Of a DNA stretch of 59,589 bases, positions 7,395 through 57,272 are shown piece after piece. This stretch comes from Folioceros fuciformis (lineage: Eukaryota): contig JBNGIO010005407.1 in assembly GCA_049999805.1 (NCBI GenBank), forward strand, positions 1 through 59,589, given 5' to 3'. A model generated the notes under the pieces. It ran no database searches and was not told the origin of the DNA. It saw nothing but the letters and a program-made list of their open reading frames with translations. Both the position numbers and the translations under genes were made by a program. Position 1 is the stretch's first letter; each line of letters opens with the position of its first letter.

Positions 7395-10300
7395 TCAAGA
7401 CGTGACGCCCAGTTGAGCAGAAAGCCTGTCATGCATGTCCTTCAGGCCCCTGACGTACTCCACGGGCTCCGCAGACTTGACCACGAGATAGTGCCGCTTC
7501 CCGCTGGGCTGGGTGGATGTCTGCTTTGACAATCGGAGCTCGCACGAGAGGTCCCAAGGTCGGTTGTGGCAGGCCTGTAGAACCAGAGCTTTGAGGATGG
7601 CCTGCTCATGGTGGCTGGTTACTGGATGCCGTCCTCCTCCAGTTATGGTAAGACACGCGGCTCCTGCATCCACTTCCCACCCATCGCTGTGGATGATGAT
7701 CTGGCCGTGCTTTTGAACTATGCAAGCTGTTTCCAACGAGATGGAAGTCGGTATTCTGGATAAGGCTGGGCCCTGTCCTGCGAAGGTGGAGTAGAAGGTG
7801 CCATTAGGTTGGAGGTGGTGTGTACCAACTCCTGGAAGCCCTAGTAGGCTGGCTGCTGCGTACCCTGTGGCCCAGCAGATGATGTTCCTGCTCCCGTCGT
7901 CGATGGTGAAGCAGGCTGAGATGGGCGCAATGGAGGAGCCGAGGGTGTTGGGCTTCAGGTCCCTCCACAGGCTTGCAACGCCGCTTTGCCACTGTAACAC
8001 TAGTTTCCGGACACGTACTACCCTTCCTCGGATTTCACACTTGGGAGGAAGATCTTTACCTGGGTGGTATGGTTGTAGGAGTCTTAGACCTGGGATTGCA
8101 TCGTCGGCAAACAGGCTGGAGACTGGGACTTCAGGAATGTTGTGCACGGCCAGAACAGTGGCTGATGTACACCTGTAGCAACAGGTAGAGTCTGATGATG
8201 CATGTCGCAAAACACGGAAGCAGGTAAGAGCTGCCTCTTCCCCAAGGCCGGCAGGAAGGCTGGTGCGTGTGACGCTGAGAAGAACCTTCGCCGTTTCTGG
8301 CCCCTGTAAGTCCTGGACAACAATTTCCACCCATTCGCTTCGCCATGGACAGGACCACGAGCTGCCTTCCGCCTTGGGGCATTGTAGCAAGCTTATCTTC
8401 CTTACCCTGCCTGTAAATGATACCAGGTTGCCCGAAAACACGTTCGTTGAAGGGGTGCCAAGAGAAGCAGCCAGTTCCCTGGGGTACATCTCTGTCTCGT
8501 GATGATCGGATTGCTGGTGAAGGGCATCCTTGAGGCTTAACACTCCAAGGACCATTCGATCTGATACCAGCTTCTTGAAACAAGCGACGCCCTCTGCAGG
8601 AAGGTGCAATATGACATCAGCTTCTCCTGAAGATGGCATAGCCGACAATCCATTGCGGCAGAGGGCGGACGGAGCGTGATCTGCTGCCTTCTGAGGTGAC
8701 ACAGTCACACAACTTGTGCTTGGAACACCCTGCAAGGTGGCAACTTTCAAGCTCCATACATGCATCCCAGCACCAATGTCAGCTTTCCGCCCTTTCGTCT
8801 GTGACCTCTGAGCATGATGAGTCTCTAGCAGGTAGCATTCTCCGACCCGCAAGGCTGTGTGACATTCCACAGCTTCCAAGCTGAACTCCAAGAGAATCTT
8901 CCTCTTTTCCCTTTCTTCTGAGCTGTCACTTATCTTCAGCATCCCAGACTTACTGGCATGAACAGCACAGCTTTCTTGGGCAACACGGTAGTTGTTTGAC
9001 AATCCCGAAGCTCTATGATAGGAGACGGGAGGAAAACAGACCGAGCACCCAAAGCTTTCAGAGCCACGTCTACCTCCAGTGCCATCTGGCAACAGGCTAA
9101 GGCCGGTACTCTGGAAACGATCGTCGCCTTTGTGTAAGAGCACAACGATGCAGGGAAGAAAAAAGACCTCTGCCATCCACCGAGCTTTGCCGATCCCCTT
9201 CCCCATCACTGGGTGCTTGTAGGTGACCATCAGGACGCTGAAGGTGCAACCACCATCTGTGCAGATAAGTTGCTCCAATGCCTGAAGAGTATCCTCTTTT
9301 CGAGGACTTGGAGGCCGCGGCAATTGCCTGATCCAAGTTGCTTCCACCAGATGAAAATGCAAGAAAATGGTCATGGAGTCTTCTGTGGAAGATCTGCTGT
9401 ACAGTTTTCGCTTCAAAATGGTTGTCCACGACAAGGGCTGCCCATCTTCATCACAACTATCAAGTGCCTCTTTCGATTTGCCAAAGTGGAAACCCTCTAC
9501 AACCAACAGATAGTTGCGAACCTCGTACAATTTGTACAAGCTCAAGACTGAAGAAAAATCTGGGACAACTACATCAATTGCCCCCGTCGCGTCAACCAGC
9601 TGTAGCATCCCTGTAAGTCCAGATACTTGCAAATATCCCACAATAATGACGCCAAGATCTGAGCCTGACAGTGTTCTGCGCAAGTATCTTCCATTCATGC
9701 CATCCATCTGATTCTCGTTCTGACCAAACTTTGGGCTCACCATACCGTTATGCCACAACTCAGATGTAGCGTCATGCCAGAAAATTCTCACTTGTTCGAG
9801 CACATTGGAAATTGGCGGAATCTGCAAGCCAGAGCTGGTCGGGAACGACTCGCTTAATTTGCAAGCTTCGTCATGGTGCATGAACTCCTTCAGATGATTC
9901 CGCTTCTTGACCGTCGGAGGGCAAATTGCACCGAGAGAGAGGTACTCCTGGGTAAGGCCGAAACCTTTCTTAGTGCCGAAAAGCTCCTCCCGGTTGTAGA
10001 TGCCCTGAAATTTCAAGCAAAAACTTGCCATGACGAGCAAGTACCAAAGTGTTGAGGCATATGAAAGATGTTCGAGGAGCTTGCTAAGGCTGCTCTGGAC
10101 GGGCTCATGGACATGATGGAGGATGTTGGGAGCAGAGATGCTTTCCACTGCTAGATGAGATCGTGCACAAGCACCCAACAGGACAGACTCCGTGTTGTGA
10201 TTGTTGATGACAAGTTTGTGTACATTGTGTGCAATGATGGTGGCTCCAGCTCGAAGGTTGCGTAGCCCAATGTTCCTATAATGTGTCAGCAATAGCAACA

Positions 10301-11462
10301 CACTCCCCTCAATCTCTACCAGGGAGCCCTGCTCGAACAGACCCGTGACAGTCCCTTTGTAAGATGTCACCGCACCATCATCTACTGCCACCAACTCTTT
10401 AGGCCCCCGAGTCCAGGAGCTTCCATCATGAAAACACACACAGCTGCTGCCCTCAACCCTTGTGACCTTTCTCCTCCTACGATCATCGTCATCCTCCACA
10501 CCTTTCAATCGGCGTTCAGCGTCAGCAATGGTTGAAGGCAGAATCATAGAGGTCCTAGTTGCTACGTAAAATCTATACATGACTCCATCGGCCTTGAGAC
10601 TCTTCCTGCGAAGTCCAGTTATACCAACGCATTGGCCCAATGATCCCGACAGAACTGGCCACCAACAAGAGACGGCCTCAGAAAAGTACACATGCCACAA
10701 ATTGCTCTTCTGCCCCTTGGACAGACCATCATCAGACAGCACAGCCCCCGATCCTGTCGTCTTCCCCGGACACCCACAGCTACAAACCAGGCTGGCATCT
10801 CCCCCGCTCACTGTGCGGTTGTCAACCTGTGCCCCACAACCCTCCTGCTCATCTAGGAGGCACTGACACCGGGGATCATGCCTGCAAGCTCCTAATTCCA
10901 CCATAAACCCTAGCATCGACTCGTGGGACTGCTTCCCCAGCCCGTACTGCCTCGATGGGCGAACAACAGGTTCCGATCCCTCAGCTCTGTATCCTTGGGG
11001 AAGGAAAAACGGAGGGCTCATGCACTGCAGACATCCCTGTATCTCCAACCGGTTGCCCGTACCACGCTTCCCCAGGGGACTCTCCAGCAAAGGATGCCTG
11101 GCATCCGCAGAGATGGGATCGACGCAAAGAGAAGGAAAGCTCTCCCGGGCATAGCTGAAACACAGGCTTCCCGCAAGCTCCAGGCTCAGAACCTCAAGCA
11201 ATCCTCTGCTCTGCTCCAGAACCCCTCCCGCTGTGTACTTCCAGGCCTTGATTCGCACCGTCTGGTTTAAGAGCCGGCAATCAAAGCAGGGAATGTGACA
11301 ACAAACACTTCCAGAAGAATCCGACAGGGCCAGACACTCTTCCAAGATTCCGCTGCCCTTGTGACGATTGCAGAGCAGCAGCTTTCCGACAATCCAGCTC
11401 TCGGCCTCGCATGAGGAAGAACAAGCCGTGCTGCTCTCTTCCAGAACCGACACGGTGACCAT
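7395..11462 (-). CDS. CTC1: CST complex subunit CTC1 (telomere maintenance, OB folds), intronless, 1355 aa
   Basis: Long uninterrupted ORF with plant CTC1-like blocks: SYKGTVTG, LLLTH...LRAGATIIAHNVH, LLGACARSHLAVES, GYLQVSGLTGMLQLVDATGAIDVVVPD, and C-terminal FTIDDGS..CWA. Confidence 0.85.
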   Translation of the reverse strand: MVTVSVLEESSTACSSSCEAESWIVGKLLLCNRHKGSGILEECLALSDSSGSVCCHIPCFDCRLLNQTVRIKAWKYTAGGVLEQSRGLLEVLSLELAGSLCFSYARESFPSLCVDPISADARHPLLESPLGKRGTGNRLEIQGCLQCMSPPFFLPQGYRAEGSEPVVRPSRQYGLGKQSHESMLGFMVELGACRHDPRCQCLLDEQEGCGAQVDNRTVSGGDASLVCSCGCPGKTTGSGAVLSDDGLSKGQKSNLWHVYFSEAVSCWWPVLSGSLGQCVGITGLRRKSLKADGVMYRFYVATRTSMILPSTIADAERRLKGVEDDDDRRRRKVTRVEGSSCVCFHDGSSWTRGPKELVAVDDGAVTSYKGTVTGLFEQGSLVEIEGSVLLLLTHYRNIGLRNLRAGATIIAHNVHKLVINNHNTESVLLGACARSHLAVESISAPNILHHVHEPVQSSLSKLLEHLSYASTLWYLLVMASFCLKFQGIYNREELFGTKKGFGLTQEYLSLGAICPPTVKKRNHLKEFMHHDEACKLSESFPTSSGLQIPPISNVLEQVRIFWHDATSELWHNGMVSPKFGQNENQMDGMNGRYLRRTLSGSDLGVIIVGYLQVSGLTGMLQLVDATGAIDVVVPDFSSVLSLYKLYEVRNYLLVVEGFHFGKSKEALDSCDEDGQPLSWTTILKRKLYSRSSTEDSMTIFLHFHLVEATWIRQLPRPPSPRKEDTLQALEQLICTDGGCTFSVLMVTYKHPVMGKGIGKARWMAEVFFLPCIVVLLHKGDDRFQSTGLSLLPDGTGGRRGSESFGCSVCFPPVSYHRASGLSNNYRVAQESCAVHASKSGMLKISDSSEEREKRKILLEFSLEAVECHTALRVGECYLLETHHAQRSQTKGRKADIGAGMHVWSLKVATLQGVPSTSCVTVSPQKAADHAPSALCRNGLSAMPSSGEADVILHLPAEGVACFKKLVSDRMVLGVLSLKDALHQQSDHHETEMYPRELAASLGTPSTNVFSGNLVSFTGRVRKISLLQCPKAEGSSWSCPWRSEWVEIVVQDLQGPETAKVLLSVTRTSLPAGLGEEAALTCFRVLRHASSDSTCCYRCTSATVLAVHNIPEVPVSSLFADDAIPGLRLLQPYHPGKDLPPKCEIRGRVVRVRKLVLQWQSGVASLWRDLKPNTLGSSIAPISACFTIDDGSRNIICWATGYAAASLLGLPGVGTHHLQPNGTFYSTFAGQGPALSRIPTSISLETACIVQKHGQIIIHSDGWEVDAGAACLTITGGGRHPVTSHHEQAILKALVLQACHNRPWDLSCELRLSKQTSTQPSGKRHYLVVKSAEPVEYVRGLKDMHDRLSAQLGVTS

Positions 11463-11664
11463 GGCGGGCCTGGTGGGCGATACGCGCGATTCATGATGAT
11501 AAAAAAGGGCTTTGGCGTTGCCCTTTTACATACATGCGTTTAGCTCGTCCGTCGACAAGAATCCTCCTAAAGTAGTCCGGCTTCGAAGGCGCGACTTAGG
11601 AAGGACTCAGACGCGAGTCGGAAGCGAACCGAAGAGCGAGGTTTTTGCTCGAGGGTGTTCGATC
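11463..11664. promoter_or_regulatory. Probable bidirectional promoter between CTC1 and RPT3
   Basis: Head-to-head start codons only ~200 bp apart. Confidence 0.5.
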
Positions 11665-14099: not shown

Positions 14100-14405
14100 G
14101 CCTTGCTCAGGTTGTTCTTCCATTAATCCAATTTGGCACTGGTTATTTCTCTATTCCTCCAATTTGGCACTGCTCAGGTTGTTCCTCCATTCCTCCAATN
14201 NNNNNNNNNCCATTCCTCCAATTTGGCACTGCTCAGGTTGTTCCTCCATTCCTCCATTCCTCCAATTTGGCACTGCTCAGGTTGTTCTTCCATTCCTCCA
14301 CCCTGCTCAGGTTCTTTCTCCATTCCTCCAATTTGGTACTGCTCAGGTTGTTCCTCCATCCCTCCAATTTAGCCCACTCAAGTTGTTCCTCCATTCCTCT
14401 AATCT
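14100..14405. repeat. 36-bp tandem repeat (minisatellite) containing an assembly gap
   Basis: Unit CCATTCCTCCAATTTGGCACTGCTCAGGTTGTTCCT, about 7-8 degenerate copies. Ten Ns at 14200-14209. Confidence 0.9.
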
Positions 14406-49481: not shown

Positions 49482-49584
49482 TTGTTTATACTTCACAGTC
49501 ATATCATACATAGTTAGAAAAACACCATAATTTTGTTTATACTTCACAGTCATATCATACATAGTTAGAAAAACACCATAATTT
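49482..49584. repeat. 51-bp tandem duplication
   Basis: TTGTTTATACTTCACAGTCATATCATACATAGTTAGAAAAACACCATAATT twice. Confidence 0.9.
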
Positions 49585-49635: not shown

Positions 49636-51253
49636 TTTATTTATTTATTTATTTATCATTAGGCATATGCAGCCGTGAGACTATGACACCGGAACCTGAA
49701 TCAAAAACATGATTGAATGGACACTTTGGGAAAGCGCAAAAGAAAGAGGATTAGAGCAAACAAAATAGCAAATCTAGATAGCTATGTCAATAAGCCTAAG
49801 TTAAGTAATCACCAATTGCCTTGAAGTAAGAGAGAAGTTTTTCCCTGAGTTTGGGAACACTAAGAAGTTGGCGGATATCGTAGTAAGAGCCTTGAAACAT
49901 TTGGATCCAAGTGTTGCGAGTGGCCATACACTGGCCAAGGATGTGGTGACAAGTTTCTTCTGAAGACCTGCATTTCCGACAAAAAGGATCCTCTATAATG
50001 TTGAATCTCCTAAAGTAAGCCCCAATAGCCATATGCCCAGTCCGAAGCTGGGTAAGAAATGATGAGAGCTTACGGTCATGGAGACCAAGACGTTGTAGCA
50101 CCGAGGCCGAGGGGCCACCAAGCACCACACTCTTAAGCGCAAAAGCCTTGGTCGAGGAAACCCACCGTAAACGCCACTCCTGTAGACTTGCAGCATGAAT
50201 TTGCTGGCGAGCTCTGGACACTGATAGGATCCGGTCTTCGTGGGAAATGGGAAGAAGAGTGGCAGCCTTGGCGGTTACATCTGCATGCTCATTACCAACT
50301 ATATTGTGATGGCCCGGAATCCAGTGGAGATTAAGGGAAACCTCCGGATGAGCAACCGAGAAGGCATGGAGAGATGTCCTAGCTTGGAGAGATATGGCTT
50401 GGGCTGGGTAAGCCGAAGTGTCCGTTAAAGACATGATAGCTGCTTGAATATCAAGGAAAATTGTAATTGATGAAATCCTAGGGATGGAAGCAAGGAGGGT
50501 GGGCAGGCATGAAATTGCTTTGACCACAGAGAGGAGTTCTGCCTCATAAACCCCGTAGTATGTTTCTAAACCAAAAGATAATTGGTGGACAATATCCCCA
50601 TTGAAGTAGAAAACAGTCGCGCCCCCAGCATGACCATCCAGAAGAGAACCATCAGTGTAAATGGCAAGGGCATCAGGAGTCAAAAGATGTAGGGAATGTG
50701 AGGCAATAGCAGAAGTGGGAGATTGTAAAATTACGATGGTTGTGGGTAAAGAAAGAGGAGAGGCCCAGGGAGGCACGAGTCGAAGAAAAATAGTCTCAAT
50801 GGCAGTGGAGGTGGGCAGTCCCAAAGCGGAGTACAGAGTACTAGAGGAAAGGAGTGTGAGGCGACTGCGGATAGCATTGTGGTAGAATTTTTTGTAGTTA
50901 GTCGTAGGAAGAAAGACTTGATGGATGGGGTGAGAGGGAGGGCAGGAGACGTTGCGGAGGAGAGAACGGAGAGAATGGCGTTGGAGGCGCAACTCCGTGG
51001 GCAGAAGAAAAGCTTCAAATTCCAGGGCATCAGTGGAGGTAGTTCGAAACGCACCAGTAATGGCCCTACAGGTTGGGCCCGTTGGAGGTGTTGAATGTGT
51101 GTACGACCTCCGTTGAACCAGACATTGTAGCCGTAATCGAGCTTGGGCAGGACAACACTGATGTATAATTGTCGAAGAAGCTTGGCATTGAGGCCCCAAA
51201 CTAACTTCCCAAGAGAGGTTATAGCTGACAAAGTACACATTGCGGAAGCTGAA
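49636..51253 (-). mobile_element. 5'-truncated non-LTR retrotransposon (LINE; RT C-terminal region + RNase H + CCHC), Tad1/I-group-like, with 15-bp TSD
   Basis: ORF2 remnant WGL..LRQLYISVVLPKLDYG / RAITGAFRTTSTDALEFEA / IYTDGS..VYEAEL..FLD..WIPGH..GNEHAD / TQLRTGH / CRKC..EETCHHILGQC. (TAAA)n 3' tail at ~49636-49655. Identical ATGATTTTTCTCTTA flanks at 49621-49635 and 51254-51268. Confidence 0.93.
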
Positions 51254-51587
51254 ATGATTTTTCTCTTAAGCAATATCTTAATGGATGCTGAAAACGAGGA
51301 TGTCATCGAAGGTTTTGGGGTTAAGGGAAATAGACACAAAATCATAGTCTCTTGTCCTAAAAATTGCTTTTCTACATGTATGTCCTTACGAATAATGGTT
51401 GGACCATCTTGTTTTTTATAAATTTTTTGTGTTTTAGAAGCCATATACTATTGCTGCATGTTATACCTAGCCAAGAAGTGTGGTGTCTTCATTAAAGTCC
51501 TCTTTTAGTAATGGTCTAAGCGGCTTCAAGAAACCAAAGTCTCTAGCCCAATGCAAAAATATCTCGTTGGATTTTAGGAATGTAGAA

Positions 51588-51677
51588 CCATGGATGGTGC
51601 TTGCATGCCTTGGCCTTCACCTCCTCTTGCCTCCATGGATGGTGCTTGCATGCCTTGGCCTTCACCTCCTCTTGCCT
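51588..51677. repeat. 45-bp tandem duplication
   Basis: CCATGGATGGTGCTTGCATGCCTTGGCCTTCACCTCCTCTTGCCT twice. Confidence 0.9.
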
Positions 51678-52119
51678 CTACTTTATTCCTTTTGGATTGT
51701 GAACTTGCTGTGGTTGATGTGGTGTAATATTCAAGCTTCTTGCAATACCTTGTTCTCCAAATACAGAGTAAGATGAAAGAAAGATGGGATGCTAATGCCC
51801 ATCACACTTACTCAAACCAAGGGCCCTAACATGTGGGTGCGCACTTAGCCAACTCACCCTAAGGGTGCTGACATGCTAGTGCTGATATTGACCAAGCCTA
51901 GTCAACTCTTTGATCACTATGCTAGACTGGTGCTCACCTCTATCAATCATCTTAGGTGCATCCACAAGTCGGTGCCCAATCCTCCCAATCATGCCAAGAA
52001 TCACCACAAGGTTGCTTAGAGTGCTAACTTTGAGTAATAAAGACCAGTAGTTAGTACTTTAGGTGAGGAGGGTGGCTACTTGCAAGGTGTAGTGCTAGTG
52101 TCTAGAGTGTGTATTTTGC

Positions 52120-55100
52120 ATGACCTTAATGACAGAAGCTCATGGCCCGATGTGTCGGGTTGCCCGCAACATAGAGACTATACTGGAAATGGGCCTGAGT
52201 ATGGACAACTGGACGGAGCAAGCGTACTATCGGCCAGACTGGAAGCAAGGTGGAAGGAGGGTAGCACACTTACCCTTACGAGTGCATGGCATGGCAAAGG
52301 CTAACACCGCTACACTTGTGGAACGACAAGCATGTGCAGCAGGCTTGGACAACGGAGCAATTCTGCTGGCTAGCGACCATATGCATGATGACGATCACCT
52401 GGAGTCTGAGCAAGAGGAGCAGCACTATGACAGCTATTCTAGCGACACCACAGTCACCTGCAGGCTAGCGGATCTAATCAAGGCTGCCGATCACCCTACA
52501 CAAGTTGAGAGCGTGCTGCAGGATGCTCATGAGCATGCTCAGCAGGCGTAAGCTATGTTGCAACGGGGGCTCAAGGATCCCACACAGGAGCATATTCTTA
52601 GTGCTCAGGTGATTGCCTGGCCCATCCCAAGTGCAGGCCTCTTTCTCATCGGATTGTTCGGAGGTATTTGCATTGGCCTGGAGGCCTTGCTCAAATCAGG
52701 CCTCCTCATTCGGCGTTATGTATATTATGACAGCAGTGGGGAAGCACAACAGATGGCTGCTCATAGTTTACAGGAGCTCCGCAACAGGTTTCCCACACAA
52801 TTGCCAGAGTCAACATTGGCTGCCACATTCGCAGCATTGCCTCCAAATGTCATGTACATCCAACAAGGCCATATCCAGGCTTTGGGACCCATCGACATGC
52901 TGATTGCTGGTTGGGAATGCCAAGGGTTCTCGTAAATAGGCGTGGGAGCCGGGTTGGAGGACCAATGCACTGGGCTGTTCCAAGACTTGCACCAAATCTT
53001 GGCATGGGTGTAGCAGGACAACCCACGGTGTGGCTACCTTCTTAAGAACACCCCAGTGCAGCTTGACAAAAGGGACTCTGTCCGTGAGGACATGGCCGTT
53101 GTGTAGCACCATATTGGTGTTCCCTTTCTTATGGATGCTGTCCAAGTGGGCAGCTATGTGCATAGGCTGCCCAACTACTGGACCAACCTTATCCCTGGTT
53201 CAGTCTTGGAGCTTGCTCTTCGCAACACGAAGCGGGATCCCACCTTGCAGCTACAAGATGTATTGGACGCAGACCATGAGCCCAGACCCATGCTTGCTAC
53301 TGAGCAACCACCCTGGCATCCCACCAATACACCTGGTCAGCCTCGCAAGTGCCTTGACCTTCAAGGTAGATGTGAGCCAGGAGTCATCAGCCAAGGTGCG
53401 AGTAATTGCTAGAACATTCAACTGGCGCATGGGGGCATAGCTTATAGATGAGCAGCAGAGGCAGATCCAAGCGCTGATCTTCAAGTACGGCGACTACTTT
53501 GCGTTCTCCATGAAGGTACTGAAGCGGTGCAGTGTCACAACCGTCAAGATCAACCTTACCAGCTCAGAACCCATATATCACAAGAGGTATCGGTTAAGTC
53601 AATCCAAGTGGGAGATGGTGGATGCTAGATGCAAGGAGCTTTTTGAGGCAGGGCTGATCAAACCTTCTAGCTCTACTTACGTTGCCGCGACTGTCATGCC
53701 ACCCAAGAAGGACAACCAAGGCTTATGGACAGAAAAGAGGATGCGTGGTGACTACCGACCTATCAACGCTGTGACAGCCTAGGACATGTATCCTATGCCC
53801 ATGCTAGAGGAAATATTTGACAGCATTGGCACGTCTGCCTACTTTTCCATACTAGACCTCAGGCAAGGGTTCAATCAAGTGCTGGTTGCACCATAGGACA
53901 TCAAGAAGACAGCTGTTCACGGATCACAACAGTTGTGGGAATGGTTGGTGATGCCATTTGGCTTCAGGAATGCACCAGTCACGTTCCAGAGAGTGATGGA
54001 CATAGTCCTGGCTAGTTCAACAAACCTGTTATGCTGTATAGACGATTAACATAAATTTGGGACCATTTTTAGCCTTACCTTTATGGCCAGACATTTACGC
54101 TAGTAATAGAGCACTAGCCTCTCAAGTGGCTCATGGCCAACACGAAGCTAAGCGGCAAGTTGGCTCGCTAGGCCATGATCCTCCAAGATTACGATTTTTA
54201 GGTGGTCCATAGGCCAGGGCTGACACATCAAAATGTGGACTCTGTGTCCAGGAATCCAGACAACAGCTGTGAAGACATGACTGAAGCAAGGCAGGACTAT
54301 GAGCCTTATGTGCCATTTCCAGTCGCTGCCCTGGGGGCCATGGTATGTGTAGGCAGTCGCAGCACAGCTGCACCTGCTCGTCTGGCCCAGGACATATGGG
54401 AGGATCCCCACACATTGCAATACGTGCAAAATGGATAGCTGAAGGAAGCATTGCCACTGGCAACAACTGAATAGGTCAAGCATCGTGCTGCCACATATTA
54501 CTGGCGAGATGGGTATGTAATAAGGAAGCTGGCACACGGAGTGGAGCGCTTGGTGCCACCACCAGCTGATAGAGCTATGCTGATTAGCAGAGTGCACAAT
54601 GACATGGGCCACTTCGGAGTCAAGCGCACTTATAGCCTACTGACTCCCCATTTTTATTGGCATGGAATGCATGACCAAGTGCATCAGTGGGTTGCTTGCT
54701 ACGAGCCATGCAACAAGGTGCAGACATCCTTCACCATTCAGCATCCAGAGCTGTATCCCTTGCCCATCATGGGCCTCTTCTTTAAATGGTCGTGTGATTT
54801 GATTGGTGAGCTGCCCCAACTCCACGTGGAAATGTGTATGTGCTCGTCATGATAGAGCACTTCAGCAAGTGGGTTGAGGCTGTCGTGCTGCCGGTAAAAC
54901 ATCCAGGAGCACCTCTCAAGCTTTCCTTCAAAATGTGCTCAGTAGTTTTGGCAGGTGTGCCGAATGCTTGACCGACTAGGGGTCGGAATTTCAAGGTGAA
55001 TTCCAAGACTTGCTGGATGTAGCCGTGATCGACCACCGCAAGACAAGCTGAGACCACCCCCAGGTGGATGGTCTCGCCGAGCGGATGATCCAGACCATCA

Positions 55101-55543
55101 AGAAGGGCTTGAGGAAGCTCTATTTACAGATGCCCAAGATGGAGTGGGACTTGGCTTTGTAGTATATCGTCATGGGGTACAGGATGAGTAAGCGTGCTTC
55201 CTTAGCACACTTCTCACCATACTTCCTGCTCTTTGGTTGTGAGCCTCTGCTACCCAGCGCTATTGCTAAACAGCTGCAACAAGTCGTGAATTTGGACAGT
55301 CCAGCTGTATGGGTTAAGGTCGTTGAAGAGAGGGATCCCTTGTTCAGACAGGTAATGCCTATGGCTATGGCAAATCTGCATATAGCACAGCAGGGGGACA
55401 CTCTTAGGTATGCTTACACAAGGAGTGGGAGTTTTAGGCCGAAGCTCAAGAAGTTTCAATTTGGAGATTTTGTGTATCTACAATGGCAGGTTGGTGACAT
55501 ATTGGACGCCAACACCTATCGCCATGTGACTACGACTGCCTAG
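52120..55543 (+). mobile_element. Degenerate Ty3/Gypsy LTR-retrotransposon pol region: (protease tail)-DNA methyltransferase-RT-RNase H-integrase; LTRs not identified
   Basis: RT: PIYHKRYRLS..KELFEAGLIKPSSS.Y..KRMRGDYRPIN, FSILDLRQGFNQ, VMPFGFRNAPVTFQRVMD, CIDD. RNase H tail: HF*PYLYGQTFTLV.EH*PLKWL, VVHRPG..HQNVDSVSR. Integrase: H..MGHFGVKRT..C..C, WSCDL, TD*GSEF, DGLAERM, FSPYFLLFG. Many stops, frameshifts and deletions. Confidence 0.92.
52600..53355 (+). pseudogene. C5-cytosine DNA methyltransferase domain (DNMT3-like) embedded in the retrotransposon pol, interrupted by stops
   Basis: One reading frame with motif I LFGGIC.GLEA (52654), motif IV IDMLIAGWECQGFS (52891-52932), GLED..TGLF, motif VI GYLL(K)N, and motif VIII DAVQVGSYVHRLPNYWTNL. 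Motifs IX-X were not found. Confidence 0.85.
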
Positions 55544-57272
55544 GGGGTGTGCATGTTGGGCACCCTTCGCTTCCTAGGTCTTTGTTCATTTCTTTGTTTA
55601 AAGAAATGAACAATTCAATTGCTTAAATTCAAATCTTGTGGTTGTGTTAAATTTATCTCAAGGTTCTCTCATTACAAGACTTTAGTTGCAATAAAATGCA
55701 GTTAACTAATCTTATTGTATCATAATTGCAAAACTCAAGTTAAAATGAAATGCAGACTAATTTGGATGGACTCCGCTCCCTTATGGCATGCTTTCCTGTA
55801 TCCATCATCTCCAAATGCACGAGCAAGCATCAAGTACATACTTCAAAATAATGAAACACACATGGATTGTAAGTGGCATCAGAAAACCTTTTGCTTTGTT
55901 TTCATTTGTTGGCATGAAGTCAGGAAGCATGACTAAGGAAACCTTTCCTTTTCAATGAGTGTTGTTTTTTCGTATTTATTTTTGAAATTTTATTTAAAGC
56001 CCAGAAGATCCTTCTCACAAAGACCCTGGTTTATTACACAAGACATTGTTATGGATGAATTCTTGTGCAGGAGTAGTATCTACAACACAATGTAGATACG
56101 ACATGGCTATGATGGAATCAAACTATTGTCTCATTTGCAATCTATTGCAAGATTATAAAATTATTTTAATCATGATATCAATTCTACCTTACATATAAAT
56201 ATTTCTTCTTCAATGTAATATAATTTGATGATACAAATATACGGTGATATTTATATAAAAATAAATAAATAAAGTTTGGATTCCAAAATATGAGTATCTA
56301 CTACCTTTTGTAGTATAAGAGGTTCTCGGAGATATACTCTCAAGCAAACTATTTGTGAGTTTCTAGTCTAGAAAAAAAAATATTTTATTAAATTTTTTCC
56401 TATGAGAGAATCATCCTCCTTCCCAGGAGTTAGTGTATAGAGTGGACAACCAAGTGAACAAAGGCCAAGGTAACAAAGGCCAAGGTACTTACTTATTCTT
56501 CCCTTCTTCTACTATTGACAAGGGTTTTCTCCCACCTCCCATGGAATGTCAAGATTTAATTATATATATAATATGTAATATATATTTTGAGTGAGGGATG
56601 TTGAGAATGCGGCCACCCTAGTTTGTGCGAGAGGTTGGAGGAACGCCATAAGTTGTGTGAAGTCCCAAAAATGCAGCGAGGTTGCCCGTATATTCTCGTG
56701 TGTTAGAATCCGCTTTGGCAGTGCAAATCCCACAGCTGATGTGAGCGGTTGGTATTGGAATCGTGGCAGACCCACATTCCGCGCCCGATGTTGGTTGCTT
56801 CCACTGCAGTTGCTGTGGTGACGCATATCTCTACGTCGCCTGCGATGTCCCTGGTTCCGTGCCTGATGGACGGGGAGGACAAGGCAGAGGCCCACCATTC
56901 GTCCTCCTTCCCCCAGTTTTAGCTCATTTCAGTCCCAAGTCTCGTCTTCTCACGGGAGAAGGAAGCGTACTCCTTACCTCGAGCTCGCTGCCGCTCGTTT
57001 TCTTTCTTGTTTCCTGCTCTGCTCTCTTCTTGAGTTGAATCAATTCCTCTGGACCATTGTGGCAAACTCCCACCTCCCCGACATGGTACCGACGCTCTCA
57101 AATCTCATGGCTGCCGGCATTACTTCCACCAACAGCAGCCTCCTGCCTCCTTCTGGATGCAAGTGTCGCTGCGTGTCTATCCTGTGCACCGTTGCGGCCG
57201 TGGCGGCAGCCGGGCAGCACAGCAGGGTCTTGCGCAGGCCTGCAACGGTGCCTGTGGGGAGGATTGTGGGAA

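Follow-up and report, generated by a model that had tools for sequence, protein, structure and literature searches.

We identified a fragment of a Ty3/gypsy retrotransposon with a DNMT3-like C5 cytosine methyltransferase (DNMT) domain in a 59,589-nucleotide stretch of DNA (contig JBNGIO010005407.1 of the Folioceros fuciformis assembly GCA_049999805.1, referred to in full as the window). The fragment spans approximately positions 52108-55579 of the (+) strand, is cut off at both ends, and carries on this one strand, in order, a protease (PR) tail, the DNMT domain, reverse transcriptase (RT), RNase H and integrase (IN). Our reading, which we hold with a probability of roughly 0.8, is that the fragment is a dead copy from a family whose Pol has the order gag(CCHC)-PR-DNMT-RT-RNaseH-IN, that this family is present in multiple copies in a land-plant source, and that its nearest named kin are elements of the zygnematophyte alga Closterium. 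Features of the fragment are given below; the proteins compared with it are designated by numbers beginning with P.

52108..52278 (+): retropepsin C-terminal tail and start of the PR-DNMT linker, at the 5' edge of the fragment (tblastn with P0175, P0105 and P0017)
52279..52629 (+): acidic, poorly conserved linker between protease and DNMT, with a stop at 52549-52551; covered by long, low-similarity high-scoring segment pairs (HSPs) of P0010, P0011, P0017, P0105 and P0175
52630..53355 (+): DNMT3-like C5 cytosine methyltransferase domain with motifs I, IV, VI and VIII and 3 in-frame stops
53356..53440 (+): junction of internal deletion 1, with about 105 residues gone (P0175 1255-1360), including the motif IX-X block
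53441..54049 (+): N-terminal two thirds of the reverse transcriptase, in a different frame from the DNMT, with 2 internal stops
54046..54064 (+): junction of internal deletion 2, with about 198 residues gone (P0175 1608-1806; P0145 1527-1724), comprising the RT end and the RNase H start
54064..54300 (+): C-terminal part of RNase H, with 4 stops (tblastn with P0007 450-525 and P0012 612-728)
54313..55579 (+): integrase, with an H2C2 zinc finger at about 54556-54729 and the core from about 54810; three frames, several stops

Layout and class of the element

Residues 838-892 of P0175, a relative whose gag-asp_proteas Pfam match covers residues 765-860, match 52108-52278 (tblastn, E 3.8e-5). The alignments of P0105 and P0017 begin at 52108 and 52159, and the region concerned in P0105 is the protease tail 'YDVLLGMEAL'. 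An initial annotation, made from the sequence alone, had placed a protease-tail-like segment upstream of the DNMT, and these alignments bear it out. The same annotation had described RT, RNase H and integrase downstream in the same orientation, and these are recovered by collinear tblastn alignments together with Pfam matches. The strongest of the latter is to Integrase_H2C2 (56.2 bits) on a single open reading frame (ORF) piece, and residues 1806-2306 of P0175 match the integrase stretch with an E-value of 8e-112 (tblastn), with homology stopping at approximately 55579.

Two domain orders recur among the relatives, which we call type B (gag(CCHC)-PR-DNMT-RT-RNaseH-IN) and type A (RT-RNaseH-DNMT-IN-PHD). 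The best 18 blastp matches of the window RT are all type B, with 40-50% identity. This identity and the fold match of a relative to Ty3 RT (see below) mark the RT as Ty3-type, and integrase follows RT in the window as it does in P0145, P0175 and P0171, giving the Pol order PR-RT-RNaseH-IN. Long terminal repeats (LTRs) were not found, in that no direct repeats of at least 40 nucleotides flank the fragment and blastn of the window against itself was likewise empty; this self-comparison revealed no second copy of the element within the window. Neither gag (CCHC) nor the rest of PR was found in the window, where the whole of P0175 matches only 52180-55579.

The methyltransferase domain

Frame 1 of 52552-53412 encodes 287 residues (P0001) when read through three stops (TAA at 52933, TAG at 53011 and TAG at 53104), and its terminal stop lies at 53410. 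Motifs I, IV, VI and VIII of the C5 methyltransferases occur in this frame in the expected order, and the catalytic cysteine is retained in the window.

52654-52668 (+): motif I, LFGGI, in read-through frame 1
52906-52932 (+): motif IV, AGWECQGFS, with the catalytic Cys present
53035-53049 (+): motif VI, YLLKN, with Lys at the position of the ENV Glu
53161-53190 (+): motif VIII, HRLPNYWTNL, with Pro at the second motif VIII arginine

These are the motifs, in the same places, that the initial annotation had reported in catalytic order through three stops. When the read-through translation was compared with the chains of the Protein Data Bank (PDB) using phmmer, the best match was DNMT3A (E 5.7e-6), in whose alignment motif I is collinear, followed by more DNMT3A, DNMT3B and DNMT3C chains; the E-value of M.HhaI was 0.15. 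When the window domain was compared by phmmer with 1.84 billion representative proteins, 981 matches had E≤1e-3, 440 had E≤1e-10 and 84 had E≤1e-30, the best being 53% identical. The matches in the PDB and in this larger set therefore place the domain far beyond chance.

A profile of the domain built from 25 short relatives was compared with solved structures, to which the following ranking applies. The profile matches DNMT3A (5.6e-24), DNMT3B (8e-22) and DNMT3C (1.7e-21) well ahead of DRM (4e-11) and M.HhaI (9.5e-9), and no DNMT1 or CMT structure was matched at E≤0.01. Among these structures DNMT3 is thus nearer to the domain than DRM, DNMT1/CMT or bacterial enzymes are, in agreement with the DNMT3-like label given to the domain at the outset. 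Relatives match the Pfam family DNA_methylase (PF00145) above its cut-off (46.1 bits for P0145, 45.5 for P0011 and 46.9 for P0042). As a lead only, the best ESM Atlas cluster for P0010 is a PF00145 family that is commonest in Streptophyta (score 0.82).

The fold was predicted for P0081 (CAI5973665.1, 754 aa, Closterium sp. NIES-65) with 36 aligned relatives. Mean pLDDT is 86.3 and exceeds 90 across the methyltransferase part. In Foldseek comparisons with the PDB, the first half of the model matches the DNMT3A-DNMT3L structure 6f57_D (E 6.9e-16), with TM scores of 0.81-0.83 on DNMT3 targets, and the first methyltransferase fold matches are all DNMT3A, 3B or 3C. The best match of the RT half is the Ty3 reverse transcriptase 4ol8 (E 2.5e-23). 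By this prediction, intact relatives have the complete DNMT3 catalytic fold.

Catalytic residues were counted in the alignment columns of 212 relatives. The catalytic Cys is present in 205 of them, the ENV Glu in 204, and the two motif VIII arginines in 198 and 196. An alignment block of motifs IX-X ('EP..ERE.aMGf...LG.aMD') is deleted from the window copy, and its residues are retained in relatives wherever that part is present. The Lys in YLLKN and the Pro in HRLP of the window are thus products of decay, since the relatives so consistently have Glu and Arg at these positions. A Pro before the catalytic Cys of motif IV is near-universal in C5 methyltransferases. The residue at this position is Glu in 137 of the 212 relatives and Pro in 60, and codon 52915-52917 of the window specifies Glu; 'ECQ' in the window is therefore the norm of the family and not a sign of decay.

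Domain orders of the relatives

Evidence that the domains belong together comes from relatives in which they share one ORF, as the initial annotation had proposed checking. P0145 (2188 aa) comprises zf-CCHC (530-547), Asp_protease (796-888), DNA_methylase (978-1226), RVT_1 (1421-1575), RNase H (1638-1766) and IN (1895-2061). P0175 and P0171, the latter from Closterium, have the same Pfam order, and a search seeded on P0145 produced further type B proteins (P0165-P0179). P0145 is collinear with the window, with 29% identity in the DNMT (tblastn). P0175 aligns to 52180-55579 in five collinear pieces (tblastn), and P0175, P0171, P0169, P0172 and P0176 are all collinear with the window across the DNMT-RT boundary. 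Named type B relatives are all from Closterium sp., strains NIES-53 and NIES-54 and then NIES-65 and NIES-68, where they are annotated as 'unnamed protein product'. Among the best 150 homologues, every one of sufficient length for a judgement sits in a retroelement polyprotein.

Type A is the commoner order. RT precedes DNMT in 92 of the 212 relatives and follows it in 18, and among the best 150 relatives 34 are complete type A proteins and many are partial ones.

Examples of type A are P0007, P0009, P0012, P0013 and P0016, along with about 90 more, mostly metagenomic; P0012 has a G-patch before IN. The only named kin of this type come from the chlorophyte Tetrabaena socialis; they are the Pol polyproteins P0218 and P0220, and they partly match the DNMT profile. 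In the literature searched we found no description of the RT-RNaseH-DNMT-IN-PHD order. A further protein, P0150 (1771 aa), combines a PF00145 match (36.8 bits) with a weak match to Dam (PF05869, 20.6 bits, under the cut-off). This pairing of C5 and Dam domains recalls the dual-methylase 'EpiLTRs' outlined in a recent preprint (bioRxiv 10.64898/2026.05.21.726589).

Copies in the source organism

Logan contigs of sequencing runs from the same organism were aligned to 51400-56200 at a likeness of at least 80%. This region attracted 299 contigs from DNA run X1 and 234 from DNA run X2. Among the X1 contigs, 61 are at least 99% alike and 142 are less than 90% alike. In X1 the summed depth rises from 6-12 in the 5' flank to 47-364 across 52205-55585 (185-364 over the DNMT bins), and falls to 0-7 past 55585. 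In the flanks this depth is that of single-copy sequence. Within the element, depth is lowest in bins 53332-53492 (47) and 53976-54136 (77), at the two places where the window copy has its deletion junctions, and depth beside the first of these bins is 155-298. Upstream of 52202 the contigs of other copies diverge, as loose ends in X1, X2 and X4. The DNMT, RT and IN stretches are repeated to the same extent, and the family is multi-copy.

A 9251-nucleotide contig from run X4, which belongs to another study, is collinear with window positions 52202-54879 and spans the PR tail, DNMT, RT and IN. It has approximately 410 extra bases between 53186 and 53900, and 1287 of its letters correspond to the 713 that the window has between 54013 and 54727. 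With extra sequence at both deletion sites, this contig therefore represents a fuller copy with the same order. The label 'RNA' for run X4 is a guess, and the run may be DNA; no run is on record as RNA.

In a further run, X3, nearly every difference over 51400-56200 is either C>T (147) or G>A (154), and the loose ends are rich in T. These patterns suggest that X3 is bisulfite-type data for the same sample, and the run could show the methylation state of the family.

Histories of the reverse transcriptase and methyltransferase

In an RT tree of 53 rows (among them P0235, whose source is Palaemon), the window groups with type B (SH-aLRT 87) and type A forms a separate clade (99). Type A RT is sister to type B RT, and gypsy elements without a DNMT fall outside, with weak support (74). 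The DNMT tree has 66 rows, comprising all 17 type B proteins with usable domains, 22 type A and 26 unclassified; it is rooted at its midpoint, and rows for cellular DNMT3, DRM and Klebsormidium are absent. Here the window and the short unnamed fragments P0002, P0003, P0005 and P0006 form a clade of their own (98), distinct from type A (99) and from the side that holds all type B and Closterium rows (95). This clade lies on the type A side of the midpoint-rooted tree, on a joining branch that is short (0.067) and a placement that depends on the root. With an RT of type B but a DNMT of a third lineage, the element may therefore have DNMT and RT histories that differ, through either uneven evolution of the DNMT or an exchange of modules.

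Decay of the window copy

The window copy itself is incapable of any function, and the initial annotation was right to call it dead. Compared with P0175 it has 17 in-frame stops in five HSPs and four frame changes. Two internal deletions have removed the DNMT C-terminus with motifs IX-X (P0175 1255-1360) and the RT end with the RNase H start (1608-1806). To these are added the missing LTRs and the E-to-K and R-to-P changes at catalytic positions. The observed/expected ratio of CpG is 0.42 in the element, compared with 0.64 for the window, and that of TpG/CpA is 1.46. Such a depletion of CpG fits the decay of a methylated repeat, although base composition is no proof of it.

Host and other features of the window

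Editing factors of the PLS-E class of pentatricopeptide repeat (PPR) proteins are a land-plant trait. One such gene shares the contig with the element, as do two receptor kinases with the GUB_WAK_bind domain. Named proteins among the 120 PPR matches listed are all embryophyte, though Closterium proteins are in the same database. They include proteins of Diphasiastrum (44-47% identity) and also of Cryptomeria, Adiantum, Ceratopteris, Ginkgo, Sphagnum, Calypogeia and Ceratodon; the best match listed (63%) is an unnamed protein. On all three counts the embryophyte host proposed by the initial annotation is supported, and to judge from these protein comparisons the absence of a close named PPR relative is compatible with a hornwort. 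Other features of the window are as follows.

ORF of 928 aa: PLS-class PPR protein, with an E motif (60 bits) and an E+ motif below threshold
Two genes: GUB_WAK_bind receptor kinases
7395-11525 (-): CTC1 telomere-complex homologue, uninterrupted ORF of 1376 aa
3523-7014 (-): LacZ-type GH2 beta-galactosidase, uninterrupted ORF of 1163 aa
49796-51447 (-): LINE-like non-LTR remnant (RNase_H 38.6 bits, sub-threshold zf-RVT), about 0.7 kb upstream of the gypsy fragment and on the opposite strand
49482-49583 and 51588-51677: perfect tandem duplications (2 x 51 nt and 2 x 45 nt), intergenic, around the LINE remnant
14200-14209: assembly gap of 10 N inside a low-complexity stretch

Intron-free genes as long as the CTC1 and beta-galactosidase ORFs are unusual in plants.

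Alternative explanations

Several observations weigh against our reading. The initial annotation had looked to the DNA_methylase profile to decide whether the read-through translation is a methyltransferase; a match is there (E 4.6e-4), but at 20.2 bits it falls short of the gathering score of 22, and no single ORF piece of the window matches PF00145 in Pfam, only the read-through. The RVT_1 match on the ORF piece 53897-54049 is similarly under its cut-off (27.7 bits against 29.6). The label 'LTR retrotransposon' rests on the relatives because the window copy has neither LTRs nor gag. The window DNMT falls outside the type B DNMTs, between type A and type B, and the Glu that replaces Pro in motif IV of so many relatives leaves room, on sequence grounds, for an altered or non-catalytic role.

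The arrangement could have arisen by chance, through insertion of a piece of a host DNMT3 gene into the remnant of a gypsy element that had none. The copy is indeed heavily rearranged, with two deletions, both ends cut and a LINE fragment (49796-51447) adjoining, and the window holds no second copy. We nevertheless consider such an accident extremely improbable: the organism's contigs repeat the DNMT stretch no less than RT and IN, whole relatives have the same order in one ORF, the closest 150 homologues, where long enough, all lie in retroelement polyproteins, and the PR-DNMT linker of the relatives is matched by the sequence 5' of the DNMT. The one-off nested host fragment that the initial annotation had named as its own undoing did not materialize, given this repetition and the collinear X4 contig. 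It is very improbable, too, that two unrelated fragments abut here, a DNMT piece of type A and the RT-RNaseH-IN of another gypsy element. Type A is the commonest order (92 against 18 of 212), the window DNMT has 37-38% identity with type A proteins (E about 1e-40) against 29% with P0145, and it lies on the type A side of the midpoint-rooted tree. A protease tail, however, and not RNase H, precedes the DNMT in the window; five type B proteins (P0175, P0171, P0169, P0172 and P0176) run collinearly over the DNMT-RT boundary, the 9.25-kb contig from the same species has PR tail, DNMT, RT and IN in order, and the branch leading to type A is short and dependent on the root. An alignment of P0012 678-728 both upstream of the DNMT and after RNase H had raised the suspicion of two fragments; it was dropped as P0145, P0175 and the Closterium proteins are collinear.

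Closterium is the source of every named relative of the element, as would be the case if the window came from a streptophyte alga or a contaminant and added nothing to the algal cases. The same contig, however, carries the PLS-class PPR gene with its E (60 bits) and E+ motifs and the two GUB_WAK_bind kinases, and the named PPR matches among the 120 listed are embryophyte without exception; an algal origin therefore seems to us improbable. More weight is due to the proposal, still an unlikely one, that the domain is not an active DNA methyltransferase anywhere in the family, and instead binds DNA or S-adenosylmethionine, methylates RNA, or acts as a decoy for host silencing factors. Such roles would suit the change of Pro to Glu in motif IV (137 of 212 relatives), and the transposon-borne DNMT of SymbioLINE did not methylate DNA in yeast and was suggested to have an RNA role (PMC5890265). 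On the other side, the Cys, the ENV Glu and each motif VIII arginine occur in 196-205 of the 212 relatives, motifs IX-X are kept where present, the structure prediction gives the whole DNMT3 catalytic fold at a pLDDT above 90, and 60 relatives retain the canonical Pro. The strong conservation of catalytic residues argues that activity matters to the element.

Possible role of the methyltransferase

In intact members of the gypsy family, the DNMT would be translated within Pol and might be packaged with RT and IN. It could then methylate cytosines of the element's own new double-stranded cDNA, or DNA at the site of insertion, and a new copy would as a consequence enter the genome already methylated. 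For Pol-borne DNMT3 domains this explanation is proposed by de Mendoza et al. (2018), who also found that one such domain methylated CG in yeast (PMC5890265). By analogy with that proposal, we infer a function in self-methylation for intact members only.

That Gypsy-DNMT3 elements were inherited from the common ancestor of zygnematophytes and land plants, and survive in multiple copies in an embryophyte where they are perhaps still transcribed, is a tentative suggestion that we think may well be wrong. Transcription enters into it because the run that yielded the 9.25-kb contig, in which both deletions are absent, may be RNA. If there is such an inherited, transcribed lineage, a transposon-encoded de novo cytosine methyltransferase operates in a land-plant methylome. 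DNMT3-bearing gypsy elements would then be one large green-lineage group, with type A as the chlorophyte and type B as the streptophyte order, and not a curiosity of Klebsormidium.

Cytosine methylation is the main weapon of plants against transposons. A transposon with its own de novo methyltransferase reverses this relation, and the present family suggests that the design of a Pol-borne DNMT crossed the transition from water to land. The family also makes it possible to ask what a transposon DNMT does in a land plant, where methylome tools are available. In addition, 'DNMT3 copy number' in surveys of plant genomes may be inflated by transposon copies.

Comparison with known systems

Among cellular enzymes, the catalytic domain of animal DNMT3A/3B/3C is the best match in both sequence and fold, with the same motif order from I to X. 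The element DNMT differs in having no PWWP or ADD domain, in its ECQ in place of PCN or PCQ, and in its location inside a retroelement polyprotein.

Retroelements that carry captured cytosine methyltransferases have been described previously. The initial annotation had cited reports from Symbiodinium and Klebsormidium, and de Mendoza et al. 2018 (PMC5890265) indeed describe both. SymbioDIRS-Dnmt3 and SymbioLINE-Dnmt of Symbiodinium and the EpiLTRs of Cymbomonas and Euglena resemble the window family in having acquired such a domain. However, their backbones are those of DIRS, LINE and chromovirus elements, and the DNMT of EpiLTRs is sister to DNMT4 (bioRxiv 10.64898/2026.05.21.726589). That 2026 preprint, which adds the chlorophyte and euglenid EpiLTRs with their different DNMT origin, regards such captures as independent. 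As far as its accessible text goes, later literature still places DNMT retroelements only in 'streptophytes', in the sense of Klebsormidium, and dinoflagellates (PMC12344493). We found no report of a DNMT-bearing retrotransposon from a land plant in the literature searched, though supplements of genome papers could mention one. The 'DNA methyltransferase' of the Anthoceros angustus genome is a repair gene of the O6-alkylguanine type (PF02870, PF01035) and not a DNMT.

The closest published counterpart is KnitGypsy-Dnmt3 of the charophyte Klebsormidium nitens (de Mendoza et al. 2018, PMC5890265), with which our comparison is by published description, as no K. nitens sequence is among the named matches. 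According to that paper, it too has a non-rearranged DNMT3-type domain in the Pol ORF of a gypsy element with a streptophyte host, and the domains of both families are intronless with conserved catalytic residues. The K. nitens copies are silent and methylated, and the window copy is depleted in CpG. In contrast, the host of KnitGypsy-Dnmt3 is a charophyte alga and that of the window element a land plant, and the K. nitens elements have DIRS-like repeats where the window copy has none (PMC5890265).

In layout, the Closterium polyproteins P0171 and P0081 come nearest, being collinear with the window in the order CCHC-(PR)-DNMT-RT-RH-IN (RH, RNase H) with 44-49% identity in RT. They differ in being algal, in having DNMTs of another clade, and in having been deposited as unnamed gene models; we found no paper on them in the literature searched. 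Type A proteins (P0007 and P0012) have a homologous DNMT (35-38% identity) with the same ECQ variant, but in these it is placed after RNase H and before integrase, behind which comes a PHD finger. With 981 representative proteins and two domain orders, the diversity of these elements extends well beyond that given in the accessible text of the 2018 paper (PMC5890265). The principle of a retrotransposon with its own DNMT is known; what is new here is the embryophyte host, the PR-DNMT-RT order held in common with Closterium, and an unnamed diversity larger than that described.

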